From the IMG/VR virus record IMGVR_UViG_2529292829_000014: a stretch of DNA of 7,279 bases. One strand, written 5' to 3'. Source of the DNA: a virus (lineage: Duplodnaviria > Heunggongvirae > Uroviricota > Caudoviricetes). Of this stretch, positions 1 through 7,279 are shown in pieces. The position numbers and the translations under genes were made by a program. The notes under the pieces were generated by a model. That model saw nothing but the letters and a program-made list of their open reading frames with translations. It searched no databases and had not been told where the DNA came from. Numbering within the stretch: position 1 is the first letter of the stretch; each line of letters starts with the position of its first letter.

Positions 1-378
1 TTATTTCGAACAATCAGCATCCATCTCCAATCGGAGATCCAACACCATCAGCATGCCCTCCACTACGCCCTCAGCTTTCTGGAGCATCCTGCCAACCCAA
101 CAATCAGATCGCCCATGCTTACGTGCAAGCGCCATAAAAGTCATGCCGCCGACATAATAGTCCACCAATAAATCATGTAAATCGCTGTTGTTTTTTTTCA
201 GGCGAGCCATACATTCACAAATGATCATCGCGTCATCGTCACAGCATTGCGGACGAGATCTTACTTTTGAAGGAATTAATCCCTTAAAACCGGCGGCAAT
301 GGACGACCAGGTCACATCTTCATGATTATTAGCCGCCCATGCCCCCCAACGCTCAAGAACCATCTGAATATCACGCAT
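1..378 (-). CDS. Phage late antitermination protein Q (short Q type, QuuD-like), 125 aa
   Basis: Translation [26 protein letters not shown]...[17 protein letters not shown]... recognised from memory as the short Q antiterminator family. ATG at 376..378 is preceded by GGAG 7 nt upstream on the minus strand; the ORF track's 393 start is an upstream in-frame GTG. TAA stop at 1..3. Lies directly downstream of the ydfU-like gene as in Qin/DLP12-type prophages. Confidence 0.7.
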
Positions 379-395
379 CAACTTACTCCACAAAA

Positions 396-1445
396 TTAGG
401 CCAGCACACCAATTGCCAGCGCGCGATCGATAAATCGAAAAATCAGCTCCAGTTGGGAGCCATACTTCTCTTCAAATGCCACGGTATCCGTATGCAACTC
501 GTCGTGATGCTTTCTGCACAAAGGCAACACAAAGAGATCATGTGCTTTGGTTCCCATTCCGCCCTGCCCGTGACCAATCAGATGATGCGGATCGTCGGCT
601 GGCATACCGCAGCAAGCACACGGCTGTGTCTTAACCCAGCGTGTGTATTTCTCCTTAACCCAACGGTGACGTTTAGGCAGCTTCATGAAAGATTCCGGAG
701 ACTCTGGATCAACGGTGATGCTTACCACCGTCTTTTCCTGTGATGGGTTTTGTTGCTGGTGGGCGTGAGGCAACGGTGCAAGATTTTTTGTGCGCTGTTT
801 CAATATGCTGGTGGCGGTCTGCTCTCCCGGTACGATGTCGCTTTCGCGGTACACCGAGCAGTTTTTTTCCGCTGGTAATCCCAGCGAGCGACGTAATACC
901 GCTTCCGGTAGCGCGTCCGCCACCTGATTGCGGACCGCCCACCAGGATAATTCAGCCAGAGATAATTCACGCTCCTGCGTACCGCTTATTGCGTGACCGA
1001 TGACGTCAATCATCCATGCTGACAGGTTTTGATGAGCAAGTTGCTCGAGTGATTCGGATGTCTGGTCACGCAGCTGGTTGTCGCAGTGCCAGCACAACAC
1101 CATTGCGCCGGTACCATAACGGTGAATAACGGTTTCGCTGTGATGATAATCGCCGAGTGGCCACTGGCAGGATTTAATATGGCGCAACAGCCAGTCAGAC
1201 AATGCACCAGCACCACCAGCAGCACGAATTACCCGTGCGTTACTGAAAAACGGCAGCAATGTTTTGTCTTCCACCAGCGGCTGGCGAACGGCAGGAACGA
1301 CCCCGGACGGCAGATTACGCATGCTTTTCGGTTCCGGCTCCACCAGTACCCGGGTATTGTGGAATACCGGCATGGATTCACGGCCCGGCTTAACGACCAC
1401 CAGCCCGAGTTCCGGTACCAGAACAGGTCGAAGTAATACCCGCAC
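396..1445 (-). CDS. ydfU: DUF968/YdfU-like prophage protein with C-terminal Cys/His (HNH-like) metal-binding cluster, 349 aa
   Basis: 349-aa ORF with GTG start at 1445 preceded by GGAGG (minus-strand mRNA ...GGAGGUAAC GUG). C-terminal motif CACCG...HHLIGHG...CRKHHDELH. Same length and position (just upstream of Q) as YdfU of the Qin prophage; family assignment is from memory. Confidence 0.6.
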
Positions 1446-1661
1446 GTTACCTCCAGATGCGTTGCTGGAATGTACGGGACGGACTCGGTGGGCGTTCGGA
1501 GTAAGGCAATCTGACTGAGATTATCCAGTGACGGTATGTGGCGTGTTCCCCAACCAGGACGGTACGTTCACCGCGATGACATATACCAAAAGCAAAACGT
1601 TTAAAACCGAATCTGGCGCGCGTTGCTGGTTAGCCAGAAACACTGACTGATGAGGCTGACG

Positions 1662-2027
1662 ATGGAATTTAAAGATTTACCGTCTGATGTACAGAAAACA
1701 GCAGCTCATACATTGCATTCTGTGCTGCGAGAAATCGGGAAAGATATTGCAAGCGAGCCAGCAAAAGATCTGGCCCGGAAAATCAAGACCGCTTTCGTTG
1801 AGCTTTATAATGTTGGCACTGACTCTGAAACTGTCGAGACCAAGACCGTAAGTTCACCAATATTCTCACTTGAGCCAGGCGTATTATCAGGTGAAATATG
1901 CACCGAGATTTCCAGCGAACTGCTTCCGGTAATACGAGAAGCAATTTGCCGTCGCGGTTTGGATGGAAGTTACGATCATGACGTCCTGCAAGTTCTCAGG
2001 ACAATGGTGACTTCACTGGGGATTTGA
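1662..2027 (+). CDS. Hypothetical protein, 121 aa, mildly acidic, no recognisable domain
   Basis: ORF with GAGG 6 nt upstream of ATG at 1662 (an in-frame ATG at 1650 lacks an SD). No transmembrane segment or HTH recognised. Its 3' end overlaps the convergent minus-strand gene by 32 bp (1996..2027). Confidence 0.45.
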   Translation: MEFKDLPSDVQKTAAHTLHSVLREIGKDIASEPAKDLARKIKTAFVELYNVGTDSETVETKTVSSPIFSLEPGVLSGEICTEISSELLPVIREAICRRGLDGSYDHDVLQVLRTMVTSLGI

Positions 2028-2196
2028 TCCCTGCGTCCTCTAACCTTTTGATATAGCGGTCCTCCAAGAAGCGGTAAATTTTGTCGAAATCATCTTTCCC
2101 CTCTGGTTTATTCAGAGGATTACAGGACCCGTAAGTAGCGGCATACATTTTAACCGTTTTATCAAAAATATAAGAGACAAATTCTTCTTTAGTCAT
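1996..2196 (-). CDS. Hypothetical small protein, 66 aa (MTKEEFVSYIFDKTVKMYAATYGSCNPLNKPEG...), moron-like
   Basis: ATG at 2194..2196 (minus strand) preceded by a strong SD (mRNA ...AAGGAAAUCUAU AUG). The coding region looks visibly AT-richer than its neighbours by eye (not computed). Opposite orientation to the flanking operon. The 95-aa ORF-track version is an upstream GTG extension that would swallow the SD. Confidence 0.5.
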   Translation of the reverse strand: MTKEEFVSYIFDKTVKMYAATYGSCNPLNKPEGKDDFDKIYRFLEDRYIKRLEDAGIKSPVKSPLS

Positions 2197-2276
2197 ATAG
2201 ATTTCCTTCTTGGTTATTCGGGATAAGAAGGATACCACCTCGCCTGACGTGGTTAAAAGCAGGCACACAACACGAA

Positions 2277-2336
2277 AGCGCACGGCGAAGTTCGTCTCAC
2301 TGTACGGTGTCGTTAAATTTAATTCGACCGTGCGCT
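2277..2336 (+). repeat. Perfect 9-bp inverted repeat (AGCGCACGG / CCGTGCGCT) enclosing 42 nt, part of a hairpin-dense region upstream of dicF
   Basis: Arms at 2277..2285 and 2328..2336 are exact reverse complements. Further hairpins follow: CCGCG/CGCGG (2352..2367), CGGGG/CCCCG (2380..2398), GTTGTCA/TGACAAC (2412..2444). Confidence 0.35.
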
Positions 2337-2471
2337 TCCGGTTGTGGCAACCCGCGAAATGGCGCGGCGGTAAGTATGGCGGGGTTATTCCTTCCCCGTT
2401 GAGGACACCGAGTTGTCAGGTTGACCATACGCTTAAGTGACAACCCCGCTGCAACGCCCTCTGTTATCAAT

Positions 2472-2529
2472 TTTCTGGTGACGTTTGGCGGTATCAGTTT
2501 TACTCCGTGACTGCTCTGCCGCCGTTTTT
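2472..2529 (+). ncRNA. dicF: DicF small regulatory RNA (prophage-encoded antisense inhibitor of ftsZ translation)
   Basis: Sequence TTTCTGGTGACGTTTGGCGGTATCAGTTTTACTCCGTGACTGCTCTGCCGCC followed by a T5 tract matches my memory of the 53-nt E. coli DicF RNA almost base for base. It sits immediately upstream of a 62-aa dicB-like ORF, as in the Qin dicB operon. Confidence 0.8.
2487..2529 (+). terminator. Rho-independent terminator forming the DicF 3' end
   Basis: Stem GGCGGTA (2487..2493) pairs with 2517..2523 (ending CCGCC), with an inner CAGT/ACTG helix, followed by G plus TTTTT (2525..2529). No A-tract precedes it, so it is oriented for the plus strand. Confidence 0.55.
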
Positions 2530-2622
2530 AAAGTGAATTTTGTGATGCGGTGAATGCGGCTAAGCGCACGCGGAACAGTTAAAACCAAAAACAGTGTTAT
2601 GGGTGGATTCTCTGTATCCGGC

Positions 2623-2643
2623 GTTAATTGTTAACTGGTTAAC
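2623..2643 (+). promoter_or_regulatory. Three spaced copies of the palindromic hexamer GTTAA(C/T); candidate operator or promoter element upstream of dicB
   Basis: GTTAAT at 2623..2628, GTTAAC at 2630..2635 and 2638..2643, about 55-75 bp upstream of the dicB-like start. A CCTGG-N5-CCAGG inverted repeat follows at 2649..2663. No convincing sigma70 -35/-10 pair could be assigned. Confidence 0.3.
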
Positions 2644-2698
2644 GTCACCTGGAGGCACCAGGCACTGCATCACAAAATTCATTGTTGAGGACGCGATA

Positions 2699-2887
2699 AT
2701 GAAAACGTTATTACCAAACGTTAATACGTCTGAAGGTTGTTTTGAAATTGGTGTCACTATCAGTAACCCTGTATTTACTGAAGATGCCATTAACAAGAGA
2801 AAACAAGAACGGGAGCTATTAAATAAAATATGCATTGTTTCAATGCTGGCTCGTTTACGTCTGATGCCAAAAGGATGTGCACAATGA
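2699..2887 (+). CDS. dicB: DicB-like cell-division inhibitor, 62 aa
   Basis: ATG at 2699 preceded by GAGGA 7 nt upstream. 62 aa, the length of Qin DicB, and located directly downstream of dicF. The ORF-track 97-aa version starts at an upstream GTG without an SD. Confidence 0.7.
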   Translation: MKTLLPNVNTSEGCFEIGVTISNPVFTEDAINKRKQERELLNKICIVSMLARLRLMPKGCAQ

Positions 2888-3075
2888 ATTCAGCATTTGC
2901 GCTTGTTCTGACAGTTTTTCTTGTTTCCGGAGAGCCAGTTGATATTGCAGTCAGTGTTCACAAGACAATGCAGGAGTGTATGACTGCAGCAACCGAACAG
3001 AAAATTCCCGGTAACTGTTACCCGGTCGATAAAGTTATTCACCAGGATAATATCGAAATCCCGGCAGGTCTTTAA
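2884..3075 (+). CDS. ydfD: YdfD-like small membrane protein (lysis protein on overexpression), 63 aa
   Basis: ATGA start/stop overlap with dicB at 2884..2887 (translational coupling). N-terminal hydrophobic segment AFALVLTVFLVSG. 63 aa, the length and position of Qin YdfD. The ORF-track 81-aa version is an in-frame upstream extension. Confidence 0.65.
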   Translation: MNSAFALVLTVFLVSGEPVDIAVSVHKTMQECMTAATEQKIPGNCYPVDKVIHQDNIEIPAGL

Positions 3076-3168
3076 AACAGTTCCGTAATAAATATCCGGT
3101 TTCATTCTTATATGCCAGCAATGGCAGGGATTTGTTCATCCTTAAATCTGTCATGAGGTTAAAACAAA

Positions 3169-5640
3169 ATGAGTAAAGTCTTTATTTGCGCCGCTATTCC
3201 TGACGAACTGGCAACAAGGGAAGAAGGCGCTGTGGCTGTAGCCACAGCCATTGAAGCTGGCGACGAACGCCGTGCTCGAGCAAAATTTCACTGGCAGTTC
3301 CTGGAACATTATCCGGCTGCTCAGGACTGCGCTTATAAATTTATTGTCTGCGAGGATAAACCTGGCATACCCCGCCCTGCCCTCGATTCATGGGATGCTG
3401 AATATATGCAGGAAAACCGCTGGGATGAGGAGTCTGCTTCTTTTGTCCCGGTTGAGACTAAATCCGATCCGATGAACGTCACTTTTGACAAGCTGGCCCC
3501 TGAAGTACAGAACGCTGTCATGGTTAAGTTCGACACATGTGAAAACATCACCGTTGATATGGTTATTAGCGCACAGGAATTGTTGCAGGAAGACATGGCA
3601 ACATTCGACGGACATATCGTTGAAGCGTTGATGAAAATGCCAGAAGTTAACGCCATGTTTCCGGAGCTTAAGTTGCACGCCATTGGGTGGGTTAAGCATA
3701 AATGTATTCCTGGTGCTAAATGGCCCGAAATTCAGGCAGAGATGCGCATCTGGAAAAAACGTCGCGAAGGTGAACGCAAGGAAACCGGAAAATACACGTC
3801 TGTTGTTGATCTCGCCCGCACCAGAGCCAATCAACAGTACACTGAAAATTCAACAGGAAAAATCAGCCCGGTCATTGCTGCCATTCATCGCGAATACAAG
3901 CAGACATGGAAAACACTGGATGACGAACTGGCCTACGCTCTCTGGCCTGGTGATGTGGTTGCCGGAAACATTGACGGCAGCATCCATCGCTGGGCAAAAA
4001 AAGAAGTTATCGACAACGACCGCGAAGACTGGAAGCGTATCTCGGCATCAATGCGCAAACAGCCTGATGCCCTTCGCTACGCCCGCCAAACTATTTTTGG
4101 CCTTGTCCGTGAGCGTCCGATCGACATTCACAAAGATCCCGTAGCACTGAACAAATATATCTGCGAATACCTGACGACAAAGGGCGTGTTTGAGAATGAA
4201 GAAACAGACCTGGGCACTGTTGATGTTCTCCAGTCATCAGAAACACAAACTGATGCAGTGGAAACTGAGGTATCTGATATCCCAAAAAATGAAACCGCGC
4301 CGGAAGCTGAACCATCTGTAGAGCGTGAGGGGCCGTTCTATTTCCTCTTCGCAGATAAGGACGGAGAAAAATACGGTCGCGCAAACAAACTTTCTGGTCT
4401 GGATAAGGCACTGGCTGCTGGCGCCACTGAAATCACAAAAGAAGAATATTTTGCCCGAAAAAATGGCACATACACGGGCTTACCGCAAAATGTAGATACC
4501 GCTGAAGATTCAGAACAACCAGAACCGATAAAAGTTACCGCTGACGAAGTAAACAAAATTATGCAGGCAGCCAATATCAGCCAGCCTGACGCCGATAAGT
4601 TGCTTGCTGCATCACGTGGTGAATTTGTTGAAGGGATTAGTGACCCGAATGATCCGAAATGGGTTAAGGGGATCCAGACCCGCGATTCTGTGAACCAGAA
4701 CCAGCATGAATCGGAACGGAACTACCAAAAAGCGGAACAAAACAGCCCAAATGCGTTACAAAACGAGCCAGAAACGAAACAGCCTGAACCAGTGGCGCAA
4801 CAGGAAGTGGAAAAAGTCTGCACCGCCTGCGGTCAGACCGGCGGCGGCAACTGCCCTGATTGTGGCGCGGTGATGGGCGACGCAACATACCAGGAAACAT
4901 TCGATGAAGAGTATCAGGTTGAAGTTCAGGAAGATGATCCGGAGGAAATGGAAGGCGCTGAACATCCACACAAGGAGAACACTGGCGGCAATCAGCATCA
5001 CAATAGCGATAATGAAACTGGCGAGACGGCAGATCACTCAATTAAGGTGAACGGTCATCACGAAATCACATCCACCAGCAGGACGTGTGACCATCTAATG
5101 ATCGACCTTGAAACCATGGGAAAAAATCCTGATGCCCCGATCATCTCAATAGGTGCAATATTTTTCGATCCGCAAACCGGAGATATGGGACCGGAATTTA
5201 GTAAGACTATCGATCTGGAAACTGCTGGCGGAGTCATTGATCGGGACACCATTAAATGGTGGCTTAAGCAATCACGCGAAGCGCAATCTGCCATTATGAC
5301 CGATGAAATCCCGTTAGATGATGCACTGTTACAATTGCGGGAATTTATCGACGAAAACTCCGGTGAATTTTTTGTTCAGGTTTGGGGAAATGGAGCCAAC
5401 TTCGACAACACGATTTTGCGCCGTTCATACGAACGGCAGGGGATCCCCTGCCCGTGGCGTTACTACAACGATCGCGATGTACGCACAATCGTTGAGCTGG
5501 GGAAAGCCATAGACTTCGATGCCAGAACGGCTATTCCATTCGAAGGTGAGCGCCATAATGCACTTGATGACGCCCGTTACCAGGCAAAATACGTTTCAGT
5601 TATCTGGCAAAAACTGATCCCGAGTCAGGCTGATTCTTAA
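3169..5640 (+). CDS. RecE-like (annotated elsewhere as exodeoxyribonuclease VIII-like) multidomain protein, 823 aa, with C-terminal DnaQ-like DEDDh 3'-5' exonuclease domain
   Basis: Long ORF with GAGG upstream of ATG at 3169. C-terminal 180 aa (from 5098) carry Exo I MIDLET, Exo II GNGANFD and Exo III HNALDDARYQAKY motifs. Middle region is acidic and low-complexity with a CxxC-x7-CxxC zinc ribbon (CTACGQTGGGNCPDCG, 4819..4863). Sits in the exo/recE slot upstream of xis-int; it may be the intact counterpart of the IS-truncated ydfE of K-12 Qin (inference). Confidence 0.8.
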   Translation: MSKVFICAAIPDELATREEGAVAVATAIEAGDERRARAKFHWQFLEHYPAAQDCAYKFIVCEDKPGIPRPALDSWDAEYMQENRWDEESASFVPVETKSDPMNVTFDKLAPEVQNAVMVKFDTCENITVDMVISAQELLQEDMATFDGHIVEALMKMPEVNAMFPELKLHAIGWVKHKCIPGAKWPEIQAEMRIWKKRREGERKETGKYTSVVDLARTRANQQYTENSTGKISPVIAAIHREYKQTWKTLDDELAYALWPGDVVAGNIDGSIHRWAKKEVIDNDREDWKRISASMRKQPDALRYARQTIFGLVRERPIDIHKDPVALNKYICEYLTTKGVFENEETDLGTVDVLQSSETQTDAVETEVSDIPKNETAPEAEPSVEREGPFYFLFADKDGEKYGRANKLSGLDKALAAGATEITKEEYFARKNGTYTGLPQNVDTAEDSEQPEPIKVTADEVNKIMQAANISQPDADKLLAASRGEFVEGISDPNDPKWVKGIQTRDSVNQNQHESERNYQKAEQNSPNALQNEPETKQPEPVAQQEVEKVCTACGQTGGGNCPDCGAVMGDATYQETFDEEYQVEVQEDDPEEMEGAEHPHKENTGGNQHHNSDNETGETADHSIKVNGHHEITSTSRTCDHLMIDLETMGKNPDAPIISIGAIFFDPQTGDMGPEFSKTIDLETAGGVIDRDTIKWWLKQSREAQSAIMTDEIPLDDALLQLREFIDENSGEFFVQVWGNGANFDNTILRRSYERQGIPCPWRYYNDRDVRTIVELGKAIDFDARTAIPFEGERHNALDDARYQAKYVSVIWQKLIPSQADS

Positions 5641-5651
5641 TGTTCAACTGT

Positions 5652-5683
5652 CGCCGGTTGTGACTGGTATTCTGCAACCGGCG
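5652..5683 (+). promoter_or_regulatory. Perfect 9-bp stem (CGCCGGTTG / CAACCGGCG) with 14-nt loop between the recE-like stop and xis; no U-tract
   Basis: Arms at 5652..5660 and 5675..5683 are exact reverse complements. Begins 12 nt after the recE-like stop. No T-run on either strand, so it is not a canonical intrinsic terminator. Confidence 0.4.
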
Positions 5684-5712
5684 CTCGTCTGATGTAAGAG
5701 ATAAAGAAATCG

Positions 5713-5964
5713 ATGAGCGAAGTAATCATGATTGTCTCTCCCGGCAAATGGGTATCCGAAGAGCAGTTAATTGCGCTGAAAGGAATAAAAAAAGGTACGT
5801 TAAAAAAGGCCCGGGAAAAATCGTTTATGGAAGGAAGGGAATATAAGCATGTCGCTCATGACGGTATGCCATGGGATAACAGTCCATGCTTTTACAACCT
5901 GGAAGAAATTGATCGCTGGATTGAGCGCCAGGCATCAGCGAGACCAAGACGTCATCTTACTTGA
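5713..5964 (+). CDS. Excisionase-like protein (lambdoid prophage Xis-like, DUF1233 type), 83 aa
   Basis: Small ORF immediately upstream of the integrase. The sequence ...KWVSEEQLIALKGIKKGTLKKAREKSFMEGREYKHVAHDGMPW... resembles the excisionase-like proteins found upstream of int in E. coli lambdoid prophages (from memory). Start could instead be the ATG at 5728. Confidence 0.6.
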   Translation: MSEVIMIVSPGKWVSEEQLIALKGIKKGTLKKAREKSFMEGREYKHVAHDGMPWDNSPCFYNLEEIDRWIERQASARPRRHLT

Positions 5965-5983
5965 CTAAAAGCCACACTAACTA

Positions 5984-7279
5984 ATGAGAGAAGTTGAAAT
6001 GAAATATCCGACAGGCGTGGAAAACCATGGAGGGAAATTACGTATCTGGTTTGTTTATAAAGGCGTAAGAGTCAGGGAAAATCTGGGGGTTCCTGACACA
6101 GCAAAAAACAGGCGCGTTGCAGGTGAACTACGCTCCTCTGTTTGTTACGCAATAAAAACTGGTGTTTTCGACTATGCAAAACAGTTTCCCTCCTCACGCA
6201 ATCTGGAAAAATTTGGTGAGGCCCGACAAGATTTAACCATAAAAGAACTGGCTGAAAAATTTCTGGCACTGAAAGAAAATGAAGTCGCCAAAACATCACT
6301 CAACACATACCGTGCCGTCATCAAAAATATCCTGAGCATAATCGGTGAAAAAAATCTTGCCTCATCGATTAATAAAGAAAAATTACTGGAGGTTCGTAAA
6401 GAGCTACTGACTGGATACCAGATCCCCAAAAGTAACTATATTGTTACACAACCAGGGAGATCGGCTGTAACTGTAAATAATTACATGACAAATCTTAACG
6501 CCGTGTTCCAGTTTGGTGTTGATAACGGTTACCTGGCAGATAATCCGTTTAAGGGGATCTCGCCATTAAAGGAATCAAGAACCATTCCGGATCCTCTTTC
6601 GCGGGAGGAATTTATCCGTCTTATCGATGCGTGCAGAAATCAGCAAGCAAAAAATTTATGGTGTGTTTCTGTTTATACTGGCGTTCGCCCTGGTGAGCTG
6701 TGTGCACTTGGATGGGAGGACATAGATCTGAAAAATGGAACAATGATGATCAGGAGAAATTTAGCAAAAGACCGTTTCACGGTACCAAAAACACAGGCGG
6801 GAACCAATCGGGTCATTCATCTTATTAAGCCAGCAATCGACGCTCTCCGGAGTCAGATGACATTAACGAGACTGAGTAAAGAGCATATCATTGATGTTCA
6901 CCTCAGAGAGTATGGCAGAACAGAAAAACAAAAATGCACCTTTGTTTTTCAACCTGAAGTGTCAGCGAGAGTAAAAAATTATGGTGACCATTTTACCGTT
7001 GACTCAATAAGGCAGATGTGGGACGCAGCGATAAAACGTGCCGGACTCCGCCATCGAAAATCATATCAGTCGAGACATACTTATGCCTGCTGGTCGCTGA
7101 CAGCTGGTGCTAACCCGGCATTTATAGCAAACCAGATGGGCCATGCAGATGCGCAAATGGTATTTCAGGTATACGGAAAATGGATGTCTGAAAACAATAA
7201 TGCACAGGTAGCTTTGTTAAATACACAGTTAAACGAGTTTGCCCCAACCATGCCCCATAACGAAGCAATAAAAAATTAA
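5984..7279 (+). CDS. Tyrosine recombinase / phage integrase with N-terminal arm-binding domain (IntR/DUF3596-like), complete, 431 aa
   Basis: N-terminal YPTGVENHGGKLRIWFVYKGVRVRENLG arm-binding motif. Catalytic signature: Arg in TGVRPGEL (6686..6688), RHTYA box (7073..7078), Tyr nucleophile in GHADAQMVFQVYGKW (7172..7174). TAA stop is at the window end. The true start may be the ATG at 5999 (MKYPTG...). Confidence 0.9.
   Translation: MREVEMKYPTGVENHGGKLRIWFVYKGVRVRENLGVPDTAKNRRVAGELRSSVCYAIKTGVFDYAKQFPSSRNLEKFGEARQDLTIKELAEKFLALKENEVAKTSLNTYRAVIKNILSIIGEKNLASSINKEKLLEVRKELLTGYQIPKSNYIVTQPGRSAVTVNNYMTNLNAVFQFGVDNGYLADNPFKGISPLKESRTIPDPLSREEFIRLIDACRNQQAKNLWCVSVYTGVRPGELCALGWEDIDLKNGTMMIRRNLAKDRFTVPKTQAGTNRVIHLIKPAIDALRSQMTLTRLSKEHIIDVHLREYGRTEKQKCTFVFQPEVSARVKNYGDHFTVDSIRQMWDAAIKRAGLRHRKSYQSRHTYACWSLTAGANPAFIANQMGHADAQMVFQVYGKWMSENNNAQVALLNTQLNEFAPTMPHNEAIKN

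Follow-up and report, generated by a model that had tools for sequence, protein, structure and literature searches.

The window analysed here, i.e. the whole stretch of 7,279 nucleotides, carries intact genes for a cell-division inhibitor (dicB) and a lysis protein (ydfD), and no gene for their cognate repressor lies nearby. The locus raises the question of how a host can keep such genes without the repressor that guards them. Host-killing division inhibitors located in an early-left operon are also known from the lambda PL operon with kil and from the Rac prophage, in which kilR is under RacR. Both genes are kept off by the immunity repressor, and the repressor can be lost safely only when the toxic gene or its promoter is gone. 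The lambda Kil and Rac KilR proteins are unrelated to DicB and YdfD.

In the K-12 Qin prophage, the dicBF operon (ydfABC-dicF-dicB-ydfDE) is under the control of DicA, DicC, and Rem. Its promoter, dicBp, from which the dicBF transcript starts, follows directly on dicA and precedes ydfA; dicBp is repressed by DicA, and deletion of dicA leads to a 22-fold derepression (PMC10448788). DicF is processed from the dicBp transcript, with RNase III cutting a 190-nt DicF precursor out of the leader stretch, and Rem acts as an antirepressor (PMC10448788). The initial annotation of the window regarded the dicB-ydfD module as potentially lethal and offered three ways in which it may be silenced, namely lack of a promoter, a repressor encoded in trans, or transcriptional interference by the convergent gene at 1996-2196.

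Identity and gene content of the window

Six complete E. coli chromosomes, including that of the O68:H12 strain 97.3, were 100% identical to the whole window. In the genome of strain 97.3, the window lies at the ydfJ/rspB locus, at the inner end of a Qin-type cryptic lambdoid prophage. Judged by its sequence, the window represents the regulatory centre together with the left arm of a decayed Qin-type cryptic prophage of E. coli. The features are listed in Table 1, in which L002 is the sequence of strain PI12, the closest relative that still has the immunity region.

Table 1. Features of the window, with the evidence for each assignment
Feature	Position	Strand	Evidence or remark
Antiterminator Q gene, prophage right arm	1..378	-	PF06530, 171.6 bits; RefSeq annotation
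ydfU (DUF968, HNH-like)	396..1445	-	PF06147, 258 bits; phrog_96
3' remnant (30 codons, 90 nt) of a 92-aa phage gene	1447..1536	-	RefSeq "incomplete, missing N-terminus"
Deletion junction, GGTA microhomology	1533..1536		L002 4537-8562 (4,026 bp) missing relative to PI12
Truncated ydfA (DUF1391)	1528..1650	+	PF07151, profile positions 12-47 only
121-aa phage protein, function unassigned	1662..2027	+	phrog_33007, E 1e-82
66-aa phage protein, function unassigned, convergent with the operon	1996..2196	-	phrog_34441, E 1e-49
Untranslated leader 5' of dicF	2255..2472	+	blastn, 98% identity to K-12
dicF small RNA gene	2473..2524	+	Rfam RF00039, 72.5 bits; near-identical to K-12 dicF
dicB, cell-division inhibitor, intact	2699..2887	+	PF05358; K-12 identity; RefSeq
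ydfD, lysis protein, intact	2884..3075	+	PF07358/DUF1482; K-12 identity; RefSeq
823-aa exonuclease	3169..5640	+	PF16473, 226 bits
Excisionase (xis)	5713..5964	+	PF06806
Tyrosine integrase (int), prophage end adjoining rspB	5999..7279	+	PF12167 and PF00589; genome context

The window shares with the K-12 Qin prophage the locus adjoining rspB and the gene order dicF-dicB-ydfD-exonuclease-xis-int. Unlike K-12 Qin, it lacks dicA, dicC, rem, hokD, dicBp, and the 5' end of ydfA, and ydfB and ydfC are replaced by a two-gene module that is common to other Qin variants. The relBE, ydfV, and flxA segment of K-12 is absent from the Qin lineage of the window. Furthermore, the exonuclease and integrase genes are intact in the window, whereas K-12 has IS2-disrupted pseudogenes in their place. 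The 823-aa exonuclease is the intact counterpart of the K-12 pseudogene ydfE, and the homology to K-12 ends at the IS2 insertion of K-12. In this protein, the Rv2179c-like 3'-5' exoribonuclease domain is C-terminal and is preceded by an N-terminal part of 640 residues with no assigned function.

The two-gene module consists of the 121-aa and 66-aa genes, a convergent pair whose 3' ends overlap by 32 nt and which stands in for ydfB and ydfC of K-12. The 121-aa gene, taking the position of ydfB/ydfC, is found in dicA-keeping relatives as well; the 66-aa gene is annotated at the same position in PI12, TA8571, 20AR0300, H2, and NT1F25. A Pfam search gave no match for either protein.

To the left of the window, strain 97.3 (L001 10762-12762 and 13169-14845) carries an IS3-disrupted AraC/HTH regulator gene, a YbgA-family gene, and a lipocalin gene. 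This set sits between the lysis genes and Q, with the lipocalin gene on the + strand and directed towards Q. The hairpin located 3' of the lipocalin gene has a T-run on the - strand only.

The dicB, ydfD, and dicF genes are intact

The DicB protein of the window matched PF05358 over residues 1-62 of 62 (136.8 bits, E 1.9e-40) and was identical to K-12 DicB at 62 of 62 residues. YdfD matched PF07358/DUF1482 over its full length (91.8 bits) and differed from K-12 YdfD at two of 63 residues (V6A and R27K). RefSeq gives the names "cell division inhibition protein DicB" and "lysis protein YdfD" at the same coordinates, and the dicB stop and the ydfD start overlap in an ATGA at 2884-2887. The initial annotation had thus named and located the ATGA-coupled pair correctly. 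The covariance model of DicF gave a score of 72.5 bits against a gathering score of 48 and was matched at positions 1-52 of 52, including the 3' terminator hairpin, so that DicB, YdfD, and DicF all belong to their respective families. The leader in front of dicF, which together with dicF is 98% identical to K-12, holds a long hairpin (fold z -2.6). From the identity to the K-12 protein, which is a MinC-dependent division inhibitor (PMC10448788), it follows that DicB of the window is predicted to inhibit division in the same MinC-dependent manner.

A sub-threshold match to the Rfam family STnc100 was also seen at 2522-2731 on the + strand (34.5 bits, gathering score 47, E 9e-5), reaching across the dicF-dicB spacer into the first part of dicB. 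The STnc100 family, described as an "sRNA" of Salmonella, may be the homologous leader of a dicB-like gene.

A deletion has removed the immunity region

Apart from one gap, the window and strain PI12 are collinear. As revealed by blastn, positions 1-1536 of the window correspond to L002 3001-4536, and positions 1537-7279 to L002 8563-14305, with 99.5-99.8% identity. GGTA is present at both edges of the gap in L002 and as a single copy in the window. According to the PI12 annotation, the missing 4,026-bp block holds the rest of the 92-aa gene, rem, hokD, several small or decayed genes, ydaT', dicC, and the repressor gene, whose product is a 135-aa helix-turn-helix protein 57% identical to DicA. 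The block also includes the dicA-ydfA spacer and codons 1-12 of ydfA. The 92-aa phage gene is whole in relatives (L002 4447-4725), and its remnant in the window marks the left edge of the deletion. On the right edge, ydfA has lost its native ATG together with codons 1-12, and compared with YdfA of K-12 and PI12 the annotated GTG start is a product of the junction.

By illegitimate recombination at the GGTA microhomology, the deletion has taken out everything from within the small gene that lies upstream of ydfU as far as ydfA codon 12. The whole immunity region was lost at once, i.e. the dicA-type repressor gene, dicC (Cro-like), rem (antirepressor), hokD, the operators, and the PL-like promoter dicBp. 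The Q/ydfU arm has likewise lost its early promoter, which is located in the dicC-dicA spacer. The junction was found in 6 of 5,426 complete genomes, namely those of strains 97.3, KFu015, E2, I4, 027_SK3, and ABW_S38.

The region upstream of dicB was previously described as replaced by unrelated genes, which misread the deletion. Positions 1537-2698 make up the leader native to this Qin variant, with the truncated ydfA, the 121-aa and 66-aa phage genes, the dicF precursor, and dicF; they are 99.5% collinear with the dicA-keeping relatives. Compared with K-12, only the stretch at approximately 1641-2255 (ydfB-ydfC in K-12) is a different mosaic module, and the dicA-keeping relatives have that module too.

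With DicA, DicC, and Rem of three immunity types as queries, tblastn gave no homologue in the window, where the best hit covered 13 residues (E 0.5), or in the 37-kb context around it; the same queries gave E values of 1e-35 to 1e-90 on an intact relative. Moreover, no regulator family was assigned to any open reading frame of the window by Pfam and PHROGs. The earlier statement that no cognate repressor gene lies nearby was borne out by these searches, which brought up no dicA- or dicC-like gene inside the window.

Promoter-like sites of the locus

In PI12, the + strand between dicC and ydfD has a single sigma-70-like site, TTGACG-17-TAAATT (L002 8419-8447), which is located in the dicA-ydfA spacer. 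This site had the top PWM score (13.7) and aligns with TTGACC-17-TAATCT of K-12 (PWM 11.9; L003 7403-7431); the K-12 site overlaps a stretch similar to the DicA operator Oc (PMC3441716). Based on the positional homology with K-12 and the consensus match, we consider the PI12 site a candidate dicBp. The candidate sites of PI12 and K-12 both fall within the deleted stretch, the PI12 site being 116 nt inside the right edge of the gap. The placing of DicA action at a promoter far upstream, which the initial annotation had stated for K-12, agrees with the published position of dicBp upstream of ydfA (PMC10448788).

In the window itself, a consensus scan of positions 1-3200 detected no promoter-like site on the + strand. 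The best PWM score on the + strand of positions 1-2700 was 9.2, which is lower than the mean maximum of shuffled sequences (10.7, sd 1.4); this site is part of the dicF hairpin and is shared by all the relatives. Hence, in the two scans, which may miss weak, activator-dependent, or alternative-sigma promoters, no new promoter made by the junction or internal to the operon rose above background. As a regulated operon, the locus has kept the order ydfA...dicF-dicB-ydfD-exonuclease on one strand, with ydfA truncated and ydfB/ydfC substituted; a dicBp with DicA operators upstream of ydfA and the adjacent dicA/dicC and rem genes are absent from the window.

Other structural variants and recurrent breakpoints

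The co-loss of dicA and dicBp was compared in five other structural variants of the locus (the L007/L006 type, the L004 type, L008, L009, and L005), a small sample and not a census. Every examined variant without dicA was also without the dicBp segment, and the variant that keeps dicBp keeps a dicA-type repressor. In the NT1F25/H2 type (L007/L006; 14 genomes), an 840-bp deletion joins a dicC remnant to ydfA. In the TA8571 type (L004; 3 genomes), a cassette remnant is joined to ydfA. Strain MB06233 (L009) has a P-loop ATPase cassette in place of dicC, dicA, and dicBp up to codon 2 of ydfA, and in strain A10 (L008) the joint to a DUF7380 fragment lies 93 nt before dicB. In strain 20AR0300 (L005), the deletion is on the other side, and the dicA-type repressor, the promoter, and the full-length ydfA are kept.

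Like the window, the NT1F25/H2, TA8571, A10, and MB06233 variants have lost dicA and dicBp and have dicB-ydfD intact. Their left partners (a dicC remnant, a 212-nt cassette remnant, a DUF7380 fragment, and a P-loop ATPase gene, respectively) differ from that of the window, and so does the retained amount of right-arm early genes. The junction of the window is the rarer hyp'-'ydfA type of six genomes.

In A10 (NZ_CP195143.1, L008 3390-4232), dicB-ydfD lies 169 nt downstream of the DUF7380 gene fragment on the same strand, and dicF, ydfA, dicA, and dicBp are all gone. If the DUF7380 fragment has a promoter, dicB may be co-transcribed without DicA control. The A10 case is more puzzling than the window itself.

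In the window and in the NT1F25 and TA8571 types, the break in ydfA is compatible with the same position (between L002 8562 and 8563, i.e. between 1536 and 1537 of the window), and the left partners differ. The coordinates of the shared break are 1533-1537 in the window, 8559-8563 in L002, 4352-4357 in L007, and 3314-3320 in L004. Furthermore, the NT1F25 type passes into a truncated QueH gene at precisely the base that forms the left edge of the window deletion (after GACGGTA, L002 4536). The three junction types (6, 14, and 3 genomes) stand on different SNP backgrounds: the window has approximately 25 private differences, and PI12 and NT1F25 differ at only approximately 5 sites. Since both edges coincide, descent of the window from an NT1F25/H2-type variant was considered, but the SNP haplotypes argue against a recent shared origin. 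With the different backgrounds, simple descent seems less likely than a hot spot at which independent events have occurred; stepwise descent could be another reading of the shared ydfA break. Repeated loss of the immunity-plus-promoter block at one ydfA nucleotide, by a hot spot of illegitimate or IS-linked recombination whose products are filtered by selection, is a tentative explanation to which we give about one chance in four. If it were true, dicA loss would be allowed only together with dicBp loss; the alternative is random decay.

A second recurrent boundary was observed at L002 5604 (L004 3104, L008 2904, L009 2904), approximately 190 nt beyond hokD, and is common to TA8571, A10, and MB06233. 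The cargo to the right of it consists of small phage genes in PI12, the DUF7380 gene fragment in A10, a P-loop ATPase gene of the Sll1717 family in MB06233, and a 212-nt remnant of an A10-type cassette in TA8571, which corresponds to the start of the A10 cassette with 86% identity. This boundary looks like a swap site for cargo or defence genes inside Qin.

Expected silencing of the dicF-dicB-ydfD genes

The same deletion took dicA/dicC, dicBp, and the 5' codons of ydfA; therefore, lack of a promoter is the supported one among the three silencing options. We regard it as likely that dicF, dicB, and ydfD are intact but promoterless and that the locus is a disarmed Qin remnant left by co-deletion of the repressor and the promoter. 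Without a promoter, the three genes would be silent or nearly so and would need no repressor, and their transcriptional silence is expected. The puzzle of a lethal module without a guard is resolved since the promoter was lost together with the repressor, and the label "potentially lethal" was an overstatement. Loss of the repressor with the promoter kept would switch on the division inhibitors; hence, co-loss of dicBp with dicA is probably the only kind of dicA loss that the cell tolerates. Loss of dicA with dicBp retained does harm in K-12: dicA was deleted for reporter work only once the dicBF operon had been removed (PMC10448788), and a high-copy cloned DicA operator was not tolerated, with titration of DicA preventing colony formation (PMC3441716).

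The two other options fared poorly. If the promoter had been kept, a DicA-type repressor encoded elsewhere in the genome could silence the module, and many E. coli do have several lambdoid prophages with dicA-like genes (a median of 4 matching places per genome, as counted with chimeric queries). However, the operators were deleted along with dicBp, so nothing is left to which such a repressor could bind, and no DicA or DicC homologue was found in the 37-kb context. The initial annotation had proposed to search the rest of the genome for dicA homologues. In a blastn search (word size 11) that combined a single-copy piece of the junction with dicA parts in reverse orientation, the three dicA types (PI12, K-12, and 20AR0300) gave no match other than the junction in 6 of 6 junction-bearing chromosomes; the search was limited to chromosomal sequence and to homologues close enough for blastn. 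An earlier chimeric query, which contained Q, ydfU, and dicB as well, had matched one place in three of the six genomes and was ambiguous in the other three. A repressor acting in trans is thus highly improbable. Equally improbable is that transcription of the convergent 66-aa gene collides with and suppresses transcription towards dicB. This gene, a member of a phage family (phrog_34441), has a good ribosome-binding site (AAGGAA 5' of the ATG) and shares sequence with the 3' end of the 121-aa gene. Nevertheless, its position is unchanged in relatives with dicA and dicBp, which makes it a normal part of the module and no substitute for a repressor; no site above background was found upstream of it on the - strand (best PWM 8.1); and with no incoming + strand promoter, there is nothing for it to interfere with.

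Low constitutive expression of dicF, dicB, and ydfD by read-through or from a cryptic internal promoter, tolerated and maybe useful to the host, is unlikely, though less so than the two options above. It would fit with the perfectly intact dicB and ydfD reading frames, with the protection that DicB is reported to give K-12 against ManYZ-using phages (PMC6832061), with a promoter upstream of dicB suggested by Cam et al. (1988, as cited in PMC10448788), and with the + strand lipocalin gene to the left of the window, which has no clear + strand terminator. However, the intact reading frames are a weak argument, given that the six genomes show no difference across the window and that the deletion seems to be recent, and Ragunathan et al. 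found no other promoter within the dicBF operon (PMC10448788). Read-through would also need to traverse 1.5 kb that is antisense to Q and ydfU, followed by the terminator of dicF. Finally, nothing speaks for the missing immunity region being an assembly artefact, and the chance of this is negligible, as six complete genomes that were sequenced independently and come from different sources (beef, river water, and waste water) share the identical junction.

Implications

Silencing by loss of the promoter, as proposed for the window, adds nothing beyond known prophage biology; the locus is the well-studied Qin dicBF locus in a decayed form, and its importance beyond annotation is little. The case shows how a cryptic prophage can lose its repressor without killing the host, in that the promoter of the toxic operon is lost in the same event. 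An intact dicB/ydfD/dicF locus should therefore not be equated with inducible DicF and DicB phenotypes, such as division control and ManYZ-dependent phage exclusion; the six junction strains have no DicA/DicC/Rem switch. For work on prophage decay and cargo hot spots, the recurrent breakpoints and the swapping of cassettes in the hokD-ydfA interval may be of interest.
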